Assembly: GCA_042217585.1 (NCBI GenBank)
Contig: JBDGSJ010000008.1
Coordinates: 1-47,232 of the forward strand
Length of the DNA stretch: 47,232 bases
Source of the DNA: Candidatus Nanohaloarchaea archaeon
Lineage (GTDB): Archaea > Nanohalarchaeota > Nanosalinia > Nanosalinales > Nanosalinaceae
Direction: 5' to 3'
In this document: positions 12,233-19,298 of the stretch, in pieces
How positions within the stretch are numbered: position 1 is the stretch's first letter
Layout of the letters: every line of letters starts with the position of its first letter
Notes under the pieces: generated by a model
What the model was told of the DNA's origin: nothing
Seen by the model: only the letters and a program-made list of their open reading frames with translations
The model's database searches: none
Position numbers and translations under genes: made by a program

Positions 12233-13297
12233 CTAGATAAAGTCCTTCACGGTCTCGAAGAACGATTTGTCCTGCTTCTTTTTCTCTCGGTACTTCTCGA
12301 AGAACTCGCGGTCCTCCTCATCGGTTTCTTCGGGTATGTCGACGTCGATCTTCACGTAAAGATCTCCGTAGCCTCTTCTGCCTGGCATCCCCTTCCCGCG
12401 GAGCCTGAGGACCTGGCCGGGCTGGCTTCCCTCCGGTATGTCCACCTTTATCTCGCCGTCTGGATGAGGTATCTCTGCCTCGGCGCCGAGGACCGCGTCG
12501 CCGATTCCGACGGTGACTGTCGTGTATAGGTCGTTTTCCCGTCTCTCAAGCGAGTCGTGGTCCTGTATCATCACGACGGCATACAGGTCTCCGGCGTTCC
12601 CGTTCCTGTCCTCGTGTCCCTTGCCTCTCAGCCTCATCTTCTGGCCGTCCCGGACGCCCTTCGGGACCTCGAAGCTGATAGTTTCTTCCTTCTCGATCAC
12701 GCCTTCTCCGCTGCACCGTGAGCATTTTACCTCCGGTATCTGTCCGGTTCCTCCGCATTCAGGGCATTCCGTGACTTTCTGTGCGCGACCGAGCGGGGTC
12801 CTCTGGACCTGCCTCACGCGTCCCTCTCCGCCGCATTCGGTGCATGTTGTCGTCTGTCCGTCTTCTGCACCGCTTCCGCCGCAGTCCGGGCATCTCTTCT
12901 TTCTGCTGACGTCGTAGGTTTTCTCGACTCCGTTATAGGCTTCCTCAAGGGATATATCGACCTTTATCCTGAGGTTTTCGCCTCCTCTTTCTCTTCTTCG
13001 TCCGCCCCCGCCGAATATCTGCTCGAAGATGTCCTTGAAGTTGGATGCGGCTCTTCTCTGGCCTCTCTCAGCGTGACCTTCTACGCCCTGCTTGCCGAAC
13101 TGGTCGTACTTCTTCCTTTTCTCCTCGTCCGAGAGGACGTCGTAGGCCTTGTTTATCTTCTTGAACTTCTCCTCGTCTGACTCTTCAGAGTTGGAGTCGG
13201 GGTGGTATCTCTTCGCCTTCTCCCTGTACGCCTTCTTTATCTCCTCCTGGCTGGCGTCCTCGGATACACCGAGCAGTTCGTAGTACTCCTTGGCCAT
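12233..13297 (-). CDS. dnaJ: Chaperone DnaJ
   Basis: J domain with HPD and four CxxCxGxG repeats; start moved to ATG 13297 (MAKEYYELLGV). Confidence 0.96.
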   Translation of the reverse strand: MAKEYYELLGVSEDASQEEIKKAYREKAKRYHPDSNSEESDEEKFKKINKAYDVLSDEEKRKKYDQFGKQGVEGHAERGQRRAASNFKDIFEQIFGGGGRRRERGGENLRIKVDISLEEAYNGVEKTYDVSRKKRCPDCGGSGAEDGQTTTCTECGGEGRVRQVQRTPLGRAQKVTECPECGGTGQIPEVKCSRCSGEGVIEKEETISFEVPKGVRDGQKMRLRGKGHEDRNGNAGDLYAVVMIQDHDSLERRENDLYTTVTVGIGDAVLGAEAEIPHPDGEIKVDIPEGSQPGQVLRLRGKGMPGRRGYGDLYVKIDVDIPEETDEEDREFFEKYREKKKQDKSFFETVKDFI

Positions 13298-13537
13298 CGC
13301 ATCAAAACCGGTGTCTGGAAATGTTTTAAGAGTGAAAGTCCTTGTCCTCCACTGCGTCGTCGCCGGGCGCGTCAACGTCGACCGTGGTGTCGGCCGGTGA
13401 ATCCGCGCTGTCGTCATCCAAGACTGCCGCTACATTCAGGGAAACTGTCAGAGTCTTCGTCTGGTCCCGACGTCCCTGAGCTTCTCGATGCTTAGTGCCA
13501 TTATAACGGTGAAGTCCGGGAAAAACCGGGGGAGGGA

Positions 13538-15427
13538 TTACTCCTCCTCTTCGTCGTCTACCTCCTCGTAGTCCGCGTCGACGACGTCCTCTCCGGACCC
13601 GGGGTTTCCGCCGCCCATGTTCATGTTCTGGGCTGCCTGCTGGATGTCCTCGGGGTCCATATTGGAGGGGTCGAATCCCTGTGGTCCGCCCTCGCCGCCG
13701 TAGATCTCCTTTCCTATCTCCTGGATCTCTTCCTCCAGCTTCTCAACGGCGTCCTCGAGCTCTTCTTTGTCTTCAAGCTCTGCGTCCTCACGGACCTCGC
13801 GGACCTCGTCGATCGCGTCCTCTATGGATTCAATCACTTCGTCGTCGACCTTGTCTCCGTGTTCCTCTATCTGGTCCTCTGCCTGGGAAACCAGATGGTC
13901 GGCACGGTTCTTTGTCTCTACGAACTCGCGGCGTTTCTGGTCTTCCTCGGCGTGCTTCTCGGCTTCTTCCTTCATCTCCTCTATCTCTTCCTCGTCAAGC
14001 CTTGAGGCCTCGTCGATCGTGATGGAGGCTTCTTCCCCGCTCTGCTGCTCCTTCGCGGAGACGTTGAGTATGCCGTCGGCGTCGATCTCGAAAGTGACCT
14101 CGATCTGCGGCTGTCCGGCGGGCGCCGGCGGGATGCCCTGGAGGTTGAACTGTCCGAGGGACTTGTTGTCCTTCGCCATCTCCCTTTCTCCCTGCACGAC
14201 GTGTACCGTGACCGCGGTCTGGTTGTCCTGTGCGGTCGTGAAGGTCTTGGACTCTTCCGCGGGTATCGTGGTGTTCTCTTCTATCAGGGTCTCGGTGAGC
14301 CCGCCCTTGACCTCTACTCCGAGGCTGAGCGGTGCGACGTCAAGGAGCAGTAGGTCGTCCATGTCCCCGGAGATGCTGCCGGCCTGGATCGAGGCACCCA
14401 TGGCTACCGCCTCGTCGGGGCTGACGCTCTGGTCCGGCTTCATGCCGGTTATCGCCTGTACGTGCTCGCGGACCGCCGGAACCCTGGTCGTTCCCCCGAC
14501 CAGTATCACGTCGTCTATCTCCGACTTGTCGATACCTGCGTCATCGATCGCCTTCTCGGTCGGCTCGGTGGTCCTCTGGATCAGGTCCTCGACGAGGTCC
14601 TCGAACTTCGACCGGGTCAGCTCGTAGTCGATGTTGTACGTGTCTTCGTCGTCCTGGTAGATGAAAGGTATGTTGATATTCGTGTTCTCCCGGGAGGAGA
14701 GCTCCTTCTTGGCCTCCTCGGCCTTCTCCCTTATCCTCTGGAGGGATTCGTCGTGCTCGGAGAGGTCGATCCCGTTCTCGTCCTCGAACTTCTCGAGCAC
14801 CCAGTCGACGATCCGCTGGTCGAGGTCGTCTCCTCCGAGTTCATTGTCTCCCTCTGTGGACTGGACCTCGTAGACGCCGTCACCCATCTCGAGGACGGTG
14901 ACGTCGAAGGTCCCTCCTCCGAAGTCGTAGACCAGCACGGTCTTCTCGGACTCGTCGTCGAGCCCGTAGGCAAGGGCCGCGGCGGTCGGCTCGTTCAGTA
15001 TCCTTTCCACCTCGAGCCCGGCGATCTCGCCCGCGTCCTTGGTGGCCTGTCTCTGCGTGTCGTCGAAGTGCGCGGGGACCGTGATGACCGCTTTCTCGAC
15101 CTCGTCGCCCAGCTTCTCCTCGGCGTCGGTCTTCAGCTTCTGGAGGATCATCGAGGAGATCTCCTGCGGCGTGTAGTCTTCGCCCTCGAGCTCTACCTCG
15201 TAGTCCTCACCCATGTGTCTCTTTATCGATTTGACGGTGTTCTCCTCGTTCGTTATCATCTGGTTCTTCGCCGGCTTCCCGACGAGCCGCTCACCGTCGT
15301 CGAACGCGACTATCGACGGCGTCACGCGGTCTCCCTCCCTGTTCTCCAGGATTTTTGGTTCTCCGTCCTCTACTGCTGCGATTGCGCTTCTCGTCGTTCC
15401 GAGGTCGATCCCGATTATTCTTCCCAT
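13538..15427 (-). CDS. dnaK: Chaperone DnaK (Hsp70)
   Basis: 'IGIDLGTT', 'AVITVPAHF', 'NEPTAAAL', 'DFGGGTFDV', '[13 protein letters not shown]'. Confidence 0.98.
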
Positions 15428-15479
15428 GTTGAAGACACCTGTTTTTGTTGAGGTGATTAAAAATTTTTAAATAGTCCCC

Positions 15480-16076
15480 TCAGATGGCGTAGAACGCGCC
15501 GAGGAGAATCGAGCCGATGTACCCGAGCGCCTGCATAGGGTCCAGCAGGTTCACGACCCGTGGCGAGACCCCTGCGATCCGCGGTCCCGGCGCCGCGACA
15601 CAGTGTAGAGGGGCAAAGTTCTTCCTCCAGTCGACAAGGTAGAAATCTCCTCCCTCCGAAACAGAGGTCTTCCAGCATCCCTGCTTTCTCGACAGTCCGT
15701 CCCTGCTGAACTCGTCCATGGGGTAGAAGTCGTGCCTGGTGTCGAAGATGTAGCTCCGTCTCGGCGGGAGGCCGCCGTCTCCCCTCTCTATCCTCACCGG
15801 GGCCCTGTAACCTATCCCTGTCCTCGAGGTCACGTTCCATCCCTCTCCCCGGAGTTCCTCCAGCTCGTCCAGATCCGTGGAGTTCAGGGGCCTCAGCTCC
15901 GGGTCCTCCGACGAGAAGTTGGTCCTTCCCAGCCTGAACTCCTCCGGCAGTTCTCCGCCGCAAAGCCCTTCCCCGCAGTGCATCACGTAGGTTATCTCGC
16001 TGATGGCTACGCTGGTCGATGATGCGGCTCCCGCCAGCATCAGGACCGCCAGGGGAAGCAAGAGGAGCTTTTCCAT
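15480..16076 (-). CDS. Secreted or membrane-anchored hypothetical protein
   Basis: Signal peptide 'MEKLLLLPLAVLMLAGAASS', four Cys and a C-terminal hydrophobic helix. Confidence 0.7.
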   Translation of the reverse strand: MEKLLLLPLAVLMLAGAASSTSVAISEITYVMHCGEGLCGGELPEEFRLGRTNFSSEDPELRPLNSTDLDELEELRGEGWNVTSRTGIGYRAPVRIERGDGGLPPRRSYIFDTRHDFYPMDEFSRDGLSRKQGCWKTSVSEGGDFYLVDWRKNFAPLHCVAAPGPRIAGVSPRVVNLLDPMQALGYIGSILLGAFYAI

Positions 16077-16103
16077 ATCTTGTTTTCCGTGGAGCCGGTT
16101 TAA

Positions 16104-16607
16104 TCAGTTTTCTTCATCGTTCTTCCCGACGACGACCTCGGATTCCCTCAGGACCTCGTCGTTGTACATGTAGCCCTTGCGCTTCTCCCGGACCACCCTG
16201 TTGTGCTCCTCGTGGGTCTCGGTGTCGACCGCCCTGTGGAGGCTGGGGTTGAACTCCTCGCCTTCCGCGTGTATCCTCTCCAGTCCTCTGTCCTGGAGCG
16301 TCTCGTAGAGCTGGTCCGCCACCATCTTGACACCCTTCACGACTCCGGTCTCCTCGTCGGCGGAAGCGATGGCTCTTTCCAGGTTGTCCATCACCTCTAT
16401 CAGCTCTTCCGCCAGCTGCTTCCTGGCGTCCTCCTGCCAGCGCTCCTTCCGGTCCTCTTCACGTTTCCTGTAGTTGTCGAAGTCCGCCTTGACCTTTTTC
16501 GCCTTTTCCTCGGCGTCTTCCTTTTCCTGCTCAAGTCGGCTGACCTTTTCCTCAATCTCTTCAAGTGCCTCGACAAGCTGTTCGCGGGAGAGGTCCTCGT
16601 AACTCAT
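16104..16607 (-). CDS. grpE: Nucleotide exchange factor GrpE
   Basis: 'ADFDNYRKR', 'VMDNLERA', 'GEEFNPSLHRAV', 'KGYMYNDEVLRESEVVV'; start ATG 16607. Confidence 0.95.
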   Translation of the reverse strand: MSYEDLSREQLVEALEEIEEKVSRLEQEKEDAEEKAKKVKADFDNYRKREEDRKERWQEDARKQLAEELIEVMDNLERAIASADEETGVVKGVKMVADQLYETLQDRGLERIHAEGEEFNPSLHRAVDTETHEEHNRVVREKRKGYMYNDEVLRESEVVVGKNDEEN

Positions 16608-16645
16608 CAGTGACCTAAACGTCGTCAAATCTTTTAACAGGTAGC

Positions 16646-17407
16646 TCAGAACCGTTTCGCGATGAAGTCCTTTATCCTGCCCGGTACGAACTTCGCCAGC
16701 CGGGTGATGAAGAAACCGTCCCATCCGATGGAGTACCTCTGGCCAGACCTCTTCTCGGCGATATCCGCAAGTTTCTCCCCGGCCTTATCAGGGCTCATCC
16801 CGCCGAGAGGCTGGTCCAGTCTCTCCCTGCACCAGTCGCCGTAGACAGTCTCCAGGTAGTTCTCCAGGTTCTCGCGTCCTCTCTCGTTGAAACCGGTCCG
16901 GACACCGCCCGGCTCCACGACGACGACATCGACGTCGAACCGTTCCACCTCCATCCGGAGTGCGTCGCTCATAGCCTCGACTCCGTGCTTGCTCGCGGAG
17001 TAAAGGCCCCAGAAAGGCCCCGATTCCTTTCCCGCGACCGACGAGACGTTCACGATCTTCCCGGACCTCTCCCTGAGCATCGGAAGTGACTCCTGTATCA
17101 TGTTCACCATCCCGAACAGGTTGGTCTCGAAGTGGCGCTCCACCTTGTCCATATCCATCTCCTCGACAGGTCCCTGCCTCTGGTAGCCTGCGCAGTTCAC
17201 CAGCACGTCGAACTCCTCCGTGTCGAGGACCTCCGCCACCCTCTCCCTGTCGTAGACGTCTCCCTCGTGGGTCTCCACCTCCTCAGGAAGTTCGTCGAGG
17301 TACTCCTCCTCTATGTCGAAGACGACTACCTCGTGGCCGCGGTCCAGCAGTTCCTCAGCCGCGTTCCGTCCGATCCCGTGTCCTCCGCCCGTTATGAAGA
17401 ACCTCAT
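16646..17407 (-). CDS. Short-chain dehydrogenase/reductase (SDR)
   Basis: 'TGGGHGIG', 'LVNCAG', 'NVSS', catalytic 'YSASK'. Confidence 0.93.
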   Translation of the reverse strand: MRFFITGGGHGIGRNAAEELLDRGHEVVVFDIEEEYLDELPEEVETHEGDVYDRERVAEVLDTEEFDVLVNCAGYQRQGPVEEMDMDKVERHFETNLFGMVNMIQESLPMLRERSGKIVNVSSVAGKESGPFWGLYSASKHGVEAMSDALRMEVERFDVDVVVVEPGGVRTGFNERGRENLENYLETVYGDWCRERLDQPLGGMSPDKAGEKLADIAEKRSGQRYSIGWDGFFITRLAKFVPGRIKDFIAKRF

Positions 17408-17448: not shown

Positions 17449-17470
17449 ATATACCTCCTTTGTTAAGAGA
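17449..17470 (+). promoter_or_regulatory. 22-bp motif overlapping the start of the winged-helix gene
   Basis: ATATACCTCCTTTGTTAAGAGA; its last A is the A of ATG 17470. Three related copies lie at 10499-10676. Confidence 0.65.
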
Positions 17471-17952
17471 TGTTCATGTCCGAGGATGACCATCCCTTCG
17501 TGGACGAGGACGCGAGGAAGTCGAAAACCCTGGTGACTAAGCACTCCATCGCGATACCGGAGGACGAGCAGAAGTACAGGAAGGGCGACAGGGCCTGGAA
17601 CTGGGAGAAGATAGTGGACCTTTTCTTTCCGCACGAGCAGTCCCCGAAGCGGAACAAGTACGCGAAGATATTCCTGCAGGAGCTGAAGAAGGAGGGCGAA
17701 ATCGACTCTGAAAAACTGAACGCGTTCGATGAATGGGGTCACGAGAAGGGAAAGTCGAACCTGAAGAACAATATACTGCCGAAACTGAGAAGACTTGGCG
17801 TGATCAAGTACGAGTATCTGGAGTATCGAGACCGCAGCGAAGGGTCTCAGGGCCGCCACAAGGTCGTCAAACCTGCCAGGTCCTTCACATCGATACTGGA
17901 CTCTATGGCGAACGGCTGGGCTGCTTTCGAGTCAGCGGCCTTCCAAGATTGA
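17470..17952 (+). CDS. Putative winged-helix DNA-binding protein
   Basis: 'KSNLKNNILPKLRRLGVIKYE...GRHKVVK' resembles a wHTH recognition helix plus wing; more basic than neighbouring proteins. Start 17470 or 17476. Confidence 0.6.
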   Translation: MFMSEDDHPFVDEDARKSKTLVTKHSIAIPEDEQKYRKGDRAWNWEKIVDLFFPHEQSPKRNKYAKIFLQELKKEGEIDSEKLNAFDEWGHEKGKSNLKNNILPKLRRLGVIKYEYLEYRDRSEGSQGRHKVVKPARSFTSILDSMANGWAAFESAAFQD

Positions 17953-18140: not shown

Positions 18141-18204
18141 TCGTTTGCACCTCGTGTTTTGTTTGGTGGTGTACGTGTGTTGTGGTCGCGATCTGGAAGG
18201 CCTG

Positions 18205-18503
18205 AAATGTTCCGGAGATGGGTCCCACCTTGCAAGCAGGACCCATCCTGAGTTCCATCCCCTTACAGGCTCACGCCTGTAGTTCCACAGAGACAGGAGG
18301 AATGGAACTTCCGTGTTGTGTTTGAGTTTTCGCGGTCAACCGTTGACTCCTTTCCGGAGCCAAGGCGTCATCCCGCTTTACTCAGCCAGGAAGTTGATAA
18401 TGGAGAAGTCGGCCTTGGCCTTGGCGTGGTTATAGTTACATCTCACCGGCATCATCAGGGTCCCGGTGAGCCAGGAGGTCTGTTGGACCAAGGCCATTTT
18501 ATC
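18205..18503 (-). ncRNA. Unidentified structured RNA or long structured 5' leader
   Basis: At least six 7-11 bp stems; G-U wobbles and GNRA-type loops fit only the minus strand; TTTATAAA box at 18527-18534. Ends are approximate. Confidence 0.65.
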
Positions 18504-18526
18504 TAACCTAATCTTGTCCGCCGACC

Positions 18527-18534
18527 TTTATAAA
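18527..18534 (-). promoter_or_regulatory. TATA box for the structured RNA
   Basis: TTTATAAA about 30 nt upstream of the first stem on the minus strand. Confidence 0.6.
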
Positions 18535-18545
18535 CGTTCGCCCGG

Positions 18546-19298
18546 TCACGGGACGTGAGGTTCGAAGACCTCGCCTCTCAGGCGCTGATGGACTTCTTCA
18601 AGCAGGTCCTGGAGGTTCTCGGCGTCGTACTGGTTGTACCTGATGAGCTTCCGGAGCGCCTCCCGGTCGCCGTTCTTCTCGTACTGCTTCCACAGCCGGA
18701 CCGCCTCGCGTCCGTCGATGTCCTCGAGCTCTCTCTGGATCCCGAGCTCCTTCTCGATGGGCTTCAGGCCGCCGGTGAGGCCCATCCTCTTGCAGGGGTA
18801 CATCAGGTCTATGTGGGGGTTCTCGATGTCCAGGTCGAAGTTCTTCTCGAGGAAAGGGACGTCGAAACGTTTCCCGTTGAAGGTGACCACGATGCTTGAC
18901 TCGAAGAACTCCTGTCTCAGGTTCTCGGCCGTAAGGTCCTCCCCGCGGACCAGCGTCCGGGATTCGCCGTTGCGGTAGAAGCTGACGGTCGTGACCCGGT
19001 TCCTGTCGAAGTCGAGTCCTGTGGTCTCGATGTCGAAGAAGCAGGCGTCCTCACGGAAGTTCCGGTACATCCTCCAGTAGCTGTCAGACGGAAGTTTGTC
19101 GCCGAAGAATACGCTGTTGCCGACCTCGAGGTTCTTCCTGGCCTTCCCGAGAAAGCCGGTTATCCGGTCCTTCTTCCCGTCCGATATGTTCGAGGAGTCC
19201 TCGACGTGGTCCCAGTGGGTTATACCGTTCTCCCATAGCTTCTTCTCCGTCTTTTCGCCCACGCGGGGTACCTGTATGAAGCTGTTCTCCAGTCTCAT
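18546..19298 (-). CDS. YprB-like RNase H-fold (DEDD-type) exonuclease with an N-terminal HhH
   Basis: 'VPRVGEKTEKKLW', 'FFDIETTGL', 'VTFNGKRFDVPFL', 'HIDL', 'YNQYDA'. Confidence 0.88.
   Translation of the reverse strand: MRLENSFIQVPRVGEKTEKKLWENGITHWDHVEDSSNISDGKKDRITGFLGKARKNLEVGNSVFFGDKLPSDSYWRMYRNFREDACFFDIETTGLDFDRNRVTTVSFYRNGESRTLVRGEDLTAENLRQEFFESSIVVTFNGKRFDVPFLEKNFDLDIENPHIDLMYPCKRMGLTGGLKPIEKELGIQRELEDIDGREAVRLWKQYEKNGDREALRKLIRYNQYDAENLQDLLEEVHQRLRGEVFEPHVP

Follow-up and report, generated by a model that had tools for sequence, protein, structure and literature searches.

On the minus strand of the 47,232-nt stretch of DNA analysed here (the window; contig C37 of a 980-kb genome, G000, 89.7% complete), a first-pass annotation made from the letters alone had placed an unrecognised structured RNA of about 300 nt, downstream of a YprB-like nuclease gene and ahead of a 38-aa ORF, and had proposed a new non-coding RNA or a riboswitch-like leader. 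The question is what kind of element this locus holds. The homologues of the window's proteins come from sources that label them Nanohaloarchaea.

The element is a real, conserved structured RNA, but it is partly coding and not a plain non-coding RNA: it is driven by a promoter and its helices covary among homologues, while the first 120 nt at its 5' end code for protein, with selection on the frame. Two features had been missing from the annotation, a 39-codon ORF in the 5' part (uORF, or ORF1) and a kink-turn. The element lies between the exonuclease gene and a convergent gene for a 160-aa protein (Table 1), and its linkage to the nuclease gene and to the 38-aa ORF (ORF2) was confirmed by synteny.

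Table 1. Features of the element and its neighbours in the window
Feature	Position	Strand	Evidence or remark
YprB-like exonuclease gene, upstream neighbour	18546..19298	-	PF13482 RNase_H_2, E 1.4e-43
TATA box	18527..18534	-	TATA-like word 5' of the uORF in 42/44 loci with enough upstream sequence
uORF (ORF1), 39 codons, C-terminal end FSIINFLAE-stop	18378..18497	-	frame conservation
P1, 5' strand	18488..18495	-	first base is the G of the uORF AUG; partner 18417-18424
P1a, hairpin inside the uORF	18442..18470	-	93% and 92% of cells paired; double changes in 4/8 pairs
Tandem CCAAGG CCAAGG C	18412..18424	-	serves P1 as 3' strand and P2 as 5' strand, 2-3 bases in common; encodes K-A-K-A
Kink-turn	18332..18376	-	pattern in 51/51 loci; invariant alignment columns
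Kink-turn C stem	18373-18376 with 18332-18335	-	four pairs
Kink-turn GAU bulge	18370-18372	-	GAU or AAU among loci
Kink-turn tandem G.A pairs	18368-18369 with 18336-18337	-	
Kink-turn NC pairs	18365-18366 with 18339-18340	-	
P4, hairpin capping the kink-turn	18343-18363	-	
Switch strand GCCUUGG	18360..18366	-	P2 partner 18412-18418; alternative partners, the kink-turn NC stem and P4
A-rich linker and variable domain P5, GUGA hairpin included	18251..18331	-	linker 58% A; length and fold vary between homologues
P6 hairpin, 13-14 bp	18216..18248	-	96.2% paired; double changes in 10/14 pairs
Short pyrimidine tract 3' of P6, weak candidate 3'-end site	18204..18209	-	47% U, 0% G over 7 columns
Shine-Dalgarno-like (SD) GAGGUG	18148..18153	-	conserved 5' of ORF2; complementary site on contig C6 of the same genome
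ORF2, 38-aa acidic micro-protein, N-terminal helix	18024..18140	-	purifying selection
Convergent conserved 160-aa gene, neighbour	17470..17952	+	distantly AF_0843-like; downstream in nearly all loci; atlas lead PF27297

Distribution and genomic setting

The window genome belongs to a family here called f1; f2 to f5 are other families. A covariance model of the core matched once, and only once, in 45 of the 49 other Nanohaloarchaea of the family, the four misses being genomes 72-85% complete, and BLAST detected the element in 32/36 same-family genomes; the genomes are kin, so these counts are not independent. The same layout, traced through ORF2 and the convergent gene, was found in all eight f4 genomes and at three of the five f3 loci that carry ORF2, so that it recurs in 11 of the 13 ORF2-bearing loci of these families; the other two lack the kink-turn pattern. 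The f4-type records bear the title Asbonarchaeaceae. Sequence drift between families is strong, and the f1 covariance model gave a weak match at the syntenic site in only two of the eight f4 genomes. No element was found at the corresponding locus of the single f2 genome or the single f5 genome, and the one genome searched from outside the phylum Nanohaloarchaeota gave no match. Among 1.84 billion representatives there were 56 matches, which carry no taxon labels; the source names seen for homologues were all Nanohaloarchaea. In the three families the element is always directly upstream of ORF2.

Locus L007 (G051:C114), of f1 type, lies on a short contig and is likely mis-binned: its genome is classed as f3 and carries an f3-type locus (L127) as well. 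The f3 loci L125-L128 share a different short motif upstream of ORF2; L126 and L127 are those without the kink-turn pattern, and another leader fold may be present there.

The exonuclease gene is directly 5' of the element in most same-family loci, a histone gene having this position in f4 loci. From its sequence, a winged-helix fold may be guessed for the convergent protein, which is 73-86% identical within the family and only ~20% identical to the AF_0843-like form of other families; no metagenome contig searched with its profile was confirmed. Genes resembling grpE, dnaK and dnaJ are located at 12233-16724 (-) of the window, with a gene for a 198-aa membrane-like protein between grpE and dnaK (names read from translations).

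Comparison with known RNA classes

Every stem that had been named at the locus was found to be fully complementary: 18488-18495 with 18417-18424 and 18463-18470 with 18442-18449 (8/8 pairs each), 18356-18363 with 18343-18350 (8/8, with the GGAAA loop), 18299-18309 with 18251-18261 (11/11), 18275-18281 with 18264-18270 (7/7, with the GUGA loop) and 18239-18247 with 18217-18225 (9/9). The TATA box TTTATAAA is also present, and the downstream GCCUUGG pairs with 18412-18418 of the tandem motif in 7/7 positions. The region has a folding z of -3.79, and 0/100 shuffles were equally stable. The choice of the minus strand is borne out by the TATA box, both ORFs and GC-to-GU changes. Other details are peculiar to this locus: the GGAAA and GUGA loops vary freely among the aligned homologues, and the 14-nt repeated motif, which does occur twice here, is not conserved, its exact pattern being found in 2/137 loci, both of them this window's own.

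A search with Rfam 15 gave no match in the window at the gathering threshold, and up to E 10 only two chance matches (E 0.21 and 1.5), far below the cut-off. The locus had been taken to be neither SRP RNA nor RNase P RNA, and both exclusions stand. The archaeal SRP RNA (RF01857) of this genome is at C6:29374-29645 (125 bits), which speaks against a divergent SRP helix 8 here, and RNase P RNA (RF00373) was found in 25/36 same-family genomes, away from the element. As a separate observation, RF00373 had no match in G000, where Rpp30 is present and neither an RNase P RNA nor HARP was found; 11/36 relatives also lack a match, and in many cases the score fell below the cut-off; RNase P RNA may be divergent or unassembled in these genomes.

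A short ORF under frame selection behind its own promoter

A stop codon is found at a fixed place, one base 5' of the kink-turn, in 44/44 loci. When the frame is set by the kink-turn alone, it is open over the 99 nt before this stop in 43/44 loci, against 0/44 and 3/44 for the other two frames. Motif spacings inside the uORF stay in frame (40/44 and 39/40 loci) despite length variation, whereas spacings outside it do not, and the stop switches among UAA, UAG and UGA seven times on the tree (38 loci). In 37/43 loci the nearest AUG downstream of the TATA box shares the uORF frame, and transcription presumably starts a few nucleotides before it. In f3 and f4 the uORF has 25-32 codons, with its stop 0-4 nt 5' of the same anchor; it begins at the first AUG in 9/11 loci and at the second in two. 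The uORF of locus L082 is shifted.

The peptide itself appears to be under weak constraint. Across the 37 loci used, pN/pS is 0.62 in the last six codons of the uORF, against 1.05 and 1.31 in shifted frames, while ORF2 has values of 0.22 and 0.35, against 1.17 and 1.35 in its shifted frames. Acidic residues (D+E) make up 5% of the uORF and 20% of ORF2, and profiles of uORFs from different families show no likeness (0.4%), whereas their ORF2s match (95%). No conserved run of control codons was found in the uORF. An isoleucine near the C-terminus is present in 43/43 loci (last 9 residues) and 11/11 loci (last 11), and a Leu-x-Glu end is common in f1. Because the peptide is weakly selected, not acidic and without a match across families, we infer that the act of translating the uORF matters more than its product.

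A kink-turn at the stop codon

A three-nucleotide bulge and tandem G.A and A.G pairs between two helices, as in kink-turns, were found in 51/51 loci and in six further f3/f4 loci; these loci had been picked by BLAST or the ORF2 profile and the pattern was used for their placement, but its columns are invariant in an unanchored alignment too. The C stem and NC pairs are 100% paired in the 39 rows of alignment A8 (39 of 43 anchored loci; L030, L085, L086 and L091 were omitted as poorly anchored). The 5b:5n pair is CG in 30 and UA in 9 rows, with four joint changes on the tree; 6b:6n pairs in only 24/51 loci. The pattern occurs seven times in the G000 genome, and only at this locus after a stop. 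An L7Ae gene is encoded in the genome, and both L7Ae binding and the kinked fold are predicted. The -1b:-1n pair is G:C, which blocks protein-free folding of kink-turns, and 3b is C in 17/51 loci, which favours it (both rules are given in the accessible part of PMC6298567); the present locus carries both.

A kink-turn, together with the fibrillarin and Cbf5-type genes present in the genome, could point to an H/ACA or C/D guide RNA, and an H/ACA-like, ribosome-associated RNA is the published guess for a homologue (see below). The anatomy makes this very improbable. A lower stem of at least 5 bp under the pocket was found in only 9/51 loci, and an ACA nearby in 27/51, within an A/C-rich stretch; between the C-like and D-like boxes there is nothing more than a hairpin of 12-35 nt, where a C/D guide would have C'/D' boxes and two guides, and no Rfam guide family matched.

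Competing helices

P1 forms at least 6/7 pairs in 40/43 loci, and most loci have the G of the AUG as its first base; one of its pairs is UA in 23 loci and CG in 13, switching about 6-7 times on the tree, and a P1-like hairpin is also present in f3/f4 loci. The first-pass annotation had proposed mutually exclusive pairings of the tandem motif. Competition does exist, but its main contest is between the CCAAGGC:GCCUUGG helix (P2) and the kink-turn arm; the overlap of the two helices formed by the tandem, P1 and P2, is limited to 2-3 bases, which makes the tandem switch a minor part. In the P2 state 98.9% of cells are paired, with double changes in 3/7 pairs from few lineages (1-2 events per pair on the tree). 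In the alternative state (kink-turn arm plus P4) the paired share of cells is 91.3%, a value reached by 0/500 shuffles in a control that ignores relatedness. In predicted ensembles P2 exceeds 0.5 in 12/39 loci and the C stem in 14/39, and neither dominates. The uORF, which is predicted to be translated, overlaps the alternative helices, as the leader ORF of a leader-peptide attenuator does, and both folds covary. P2 was not seen in f3/f4 loci, where P1, the uORF, the kink-turn and a P6-like hairpin remain; the contest between P2 and the kink-turn is therefore family-specific.

The alternative pairings and some conserved junction bases are also what a metabolite- or ion-sensing riboswitch with the kink-turn as a structural elbow would display, as had been suggested from the sequence. 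We consider this quite improbable, as Rfam gave nothing beyond the two chance matches, the element has one match per genome and never precedes a second kind of gene, few unpaired bases are conserved across families, and selection on the uORF frame would be left unexplained.

The spacer and ORF2

P6 has an invariant G.U (30/30) beside a variable loop, and two columns of the tract that follows have U in 28/30 and 29/30 loci. A simple scan found no terminator-like site on the minus strand; the termination factor FttA (aCPSF1) is encoded in the genome. The distance from the kink-turn to the ORF2 start is 143-276 nt among loci, with an A/C-rich stretch 5' of the SD. No conserved helix hiding the SD was found, nor a long-range helix joining the two ends of the spacer.

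ORF2 has 37-38 codons for amino acids, and an AF2 model of a 40-aa homologue shows one helix (residues 3-24, pLDDT 80) plus a tail. It belongs to no Pfam or NCBIfam family, an atlas search gave no usable match, and neither its profile nor a DNA pattern matched viral contigs. In profile comparison the f1 protein has a match (95%) to the Cys-x-x-Cys form of f3/f4, and in the latter it starts AUG-Cys. A TATA-like word of its own was found at only 1/46 loci, and ORF2 therefore depends on the upstream promoter.

The aligned first codon of ORF2 is AUC, AUU or AUA in 16/46 loci, with six switches on the tree. This, the fixed stop at the foot of a helix and the A/C-rich stretch before the SD could be read as translational coupling or a shunt, in which a ribosome that terminates on the uORF would be handed over the folded spacer to the SD of ORF2 and transcription would be unchanged. 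Such a transfer is improbable, since no long-range helix spans the spacer, ORF2 has its own SD, and in 14 of the 16 loci a GUG lies in frame nine bases further 5', which leaves only two that need a non-standard start. At L024, L058 and L072 the first codon of ORF2 or a paralogue is AUU, with no in-frame AUG, GUG or UUG nearby, and a non-standard start is possible there.

Free-standing ORF2 paralogues without the RNA element also exist, and the RNA is thus an add-on to this copy. Free-standing or weak paralogues without the RNA are found just 3' of a conserved gene for a winged-helix-like regulator at L069-L071, L075, L077, L103, L107 and L109. With gene names read from translations, the paralogue at L097:561-674 (-) precedes glutamine synthetase as a leader ORF, accompanied by a divergent Lrp-like gene; others adjoin another divergent regulator at L081:825-875 (+) and L104:890-1006 (+), and one follows a TFB-like gene at L105:485-625 (-).

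The small ORF invites comparison with tmRNA: small hydrophobic residues form its C-terminus, and the context of its start is similar to the tmRNA resume context. An archaeal tmRNA-like RNA with ORF2 as its tag is nevertheless barely credible. ARAGORN found no tmRNA in the window, a low-threshold run returning noise; SmpB was not found in the 89.7% complete genome; the alignment has no conserved tRNA-like end; and ORF2 is preceded by an SD, begins with AUG-Cys in f3/f4 and also occurs as free-standing paralogues.

A published homologue

The lack of an Rfam family agrees with the novelty claimed for this RNA, but a homologue is already in print as an abundant non-coding RNA of unknown family. 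In the available text of Reva et al. 2023 (PMC10266531), SVXNc_nc0001 of Ca. Nanohalococcus occultus is a 322-nt, unknown H/ACA-like RNA with 39,987 RPKM, against 1,272 RPKM for the exonuclease gene, and a homologue is reported in Nanohalovita. By eye, the printed sequence matches a member of the present RNA family in reverse complement, conserved motifs included, and ends just 5' of the SD; the SRP RNA of that article is likewise printed antisense. Its locus resembles the window, with the order DnaJ, DnaK, GrpE, hypothetical, exonuclease, histone and PolB. The accessible account gives the RNA in antisense as putatively H/ACA-like, and those parts describe no uORF, kink-turn, covariation, ORF2 or order-wide range.

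Such abundance would also be expected of a stable L7Ae ribonucleoprotein acting in trans, for example on ribosomes, with the uORF docking a ribosome or maturing the RNA and ORF2 merely co-transcribed. An elaborate conserved fold with an invariant G.U and an occurrence in almost all near-complete genomes of the family speak for it, and L7Ae structures many non-coding RNAs (PMC5539422, available portions). We regard this as unlikely, although a serious alternative: the element is always directly 5' of ORF2 in three families, the competing folds fit a switch better than a scaffold, and the sequence drifts strongly between families.

Discussion

Comparison of the homologues demonstrates one promoter, a uORF frame, a stop at the foot of the kink-turn, two covarying folds on one strand (in f1), a conserved P6, and an ORF2 with an SD and without a promoter. 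Our preferred reading, to which we give a probability of roughly 45%, is that the element may be a cis-acting, L7Ae-gated, ribosome-coupled leader of a two-ORF transcript that controls the 38-aa gene. A ribosome would load on the nascent 5' end and melt P1 and P2. On terminating, it would cover the bulged strand of the kink-turn, so that ribosome and L7Ae would compete for the site. With L7Ae bound, the kink-turn and P4 would lock, P2 would be freed and P1 would close over the uORF start; the ribosome-free spacer would then, most likely, be cut or terminated by FttA before ORF2, leaving the abundant ~300-nt RNA. In the other state the transcript would extend to ORF2, and either state could be the ON state.

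Several observations are consistent with this leader reading: the frame and the stop position, the weaker selection and fewer acidic residues of the uORF relative to ORF2, the covariation of both folds with neither dominant, the G:C at -1b:-1n, the presence of L7Ae and FttA genes, the absence of a TATA box for ORF2, the single copy, the ORF2 paralogues that lack the RNA, the profile match of ORF2s but not of uORFs between families, and the high level of the published homologue relative to the exonuclease gene, with an end that by eye lies just before the SD. Others argue against it. P2 was not seen in f3/f4, and its 5' strand is also coding, with few double changes. A static fold is possible, in which the NC stem of 2 bp stacks on a shortened P2, given the pairing of 6b:6n in less than half of the loci. 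No helix hides the SD, and the tract after P6 is 47% U while FttA prefers U-rich RNA (PMC11616081, accessible text). C at 3b would favour protein-free folding, and two of the 13 f3/f4 ORF2 loci lack the kink-turn pattern.

The closest known systems share parts of this design. Archaeal L7Ae operators in l7ae, nop5 and other mRNAs, in which L7Ae binds leader kink-turns and represses translation (PMC5539422, PMC6298567, as far as their accessible text goes), likewise have a GAU bulge, tandem G.A pairs, a short C stem and G:C at -1b:-1n, and the present genome encodes L7Ae. In these operators, however, the kink-turn is at the ribosome-binding site, whereas here it follows the uORF stop and ends ~180 nt before the SD of ORF2, and the downstream gene does not encode an RNP protein. 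The 5' UTR of MM2442 in Methanosarcina mazei also has small ORFs within a long archaeal leader, but it is controlled by an antisense sRNA, and the available part of its description mentions no kink-turn (PMC3510493).

The element also resembles another group in its short leader ORF, long spacer and competing helices overlapping the leader. Bacterial leader-peptide attenuators, especially the factor-dependent tnaC type, combine a short translated leader, a long untranslated spacer and competing helices over the leader. Unlike these, the element has no conserved run of control codons, no terminator/antiterminator pair shown, a kink-turn at the stop, an archaeal host and a micro-protein as target. 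We describe it as a candidate variant of kink-turn and leader-peptide control that falls outside every tested family, and the literature searched, mostly without subscription papers, contained no account of an archaeal leader that combines a uORF with a kink-turn. More specifically, and still doubtfully, it might be an archaeal kink-turn-gated leader-peptide attenuator, in which a ribosome ending the uORF is set against free L7Ae, and the symbiont would sense active ribosomes versus spare assembly protein and set the level of the micro-protein.

Few regulators are known from Nanohaloarchaea, whose genomes are close to 1 Mb, yet this single-copy element is kept across three families, and in the accessible published data its RNA is highly abundant in one cultured species. 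The analysis explains the anatomy of a published orphan non-coding RNA, namely its strand, hidden ORF and kink-turn, and adds two micro-genes outside known families. The element would also bear on whether FttA acts on ribosome-free RNA, the exclusion of FttA by ribosomes and its policing of translation coupling being a hypothesis in the available text of PMC11616081, and it is a candidate for translation-coupled control in archaea.
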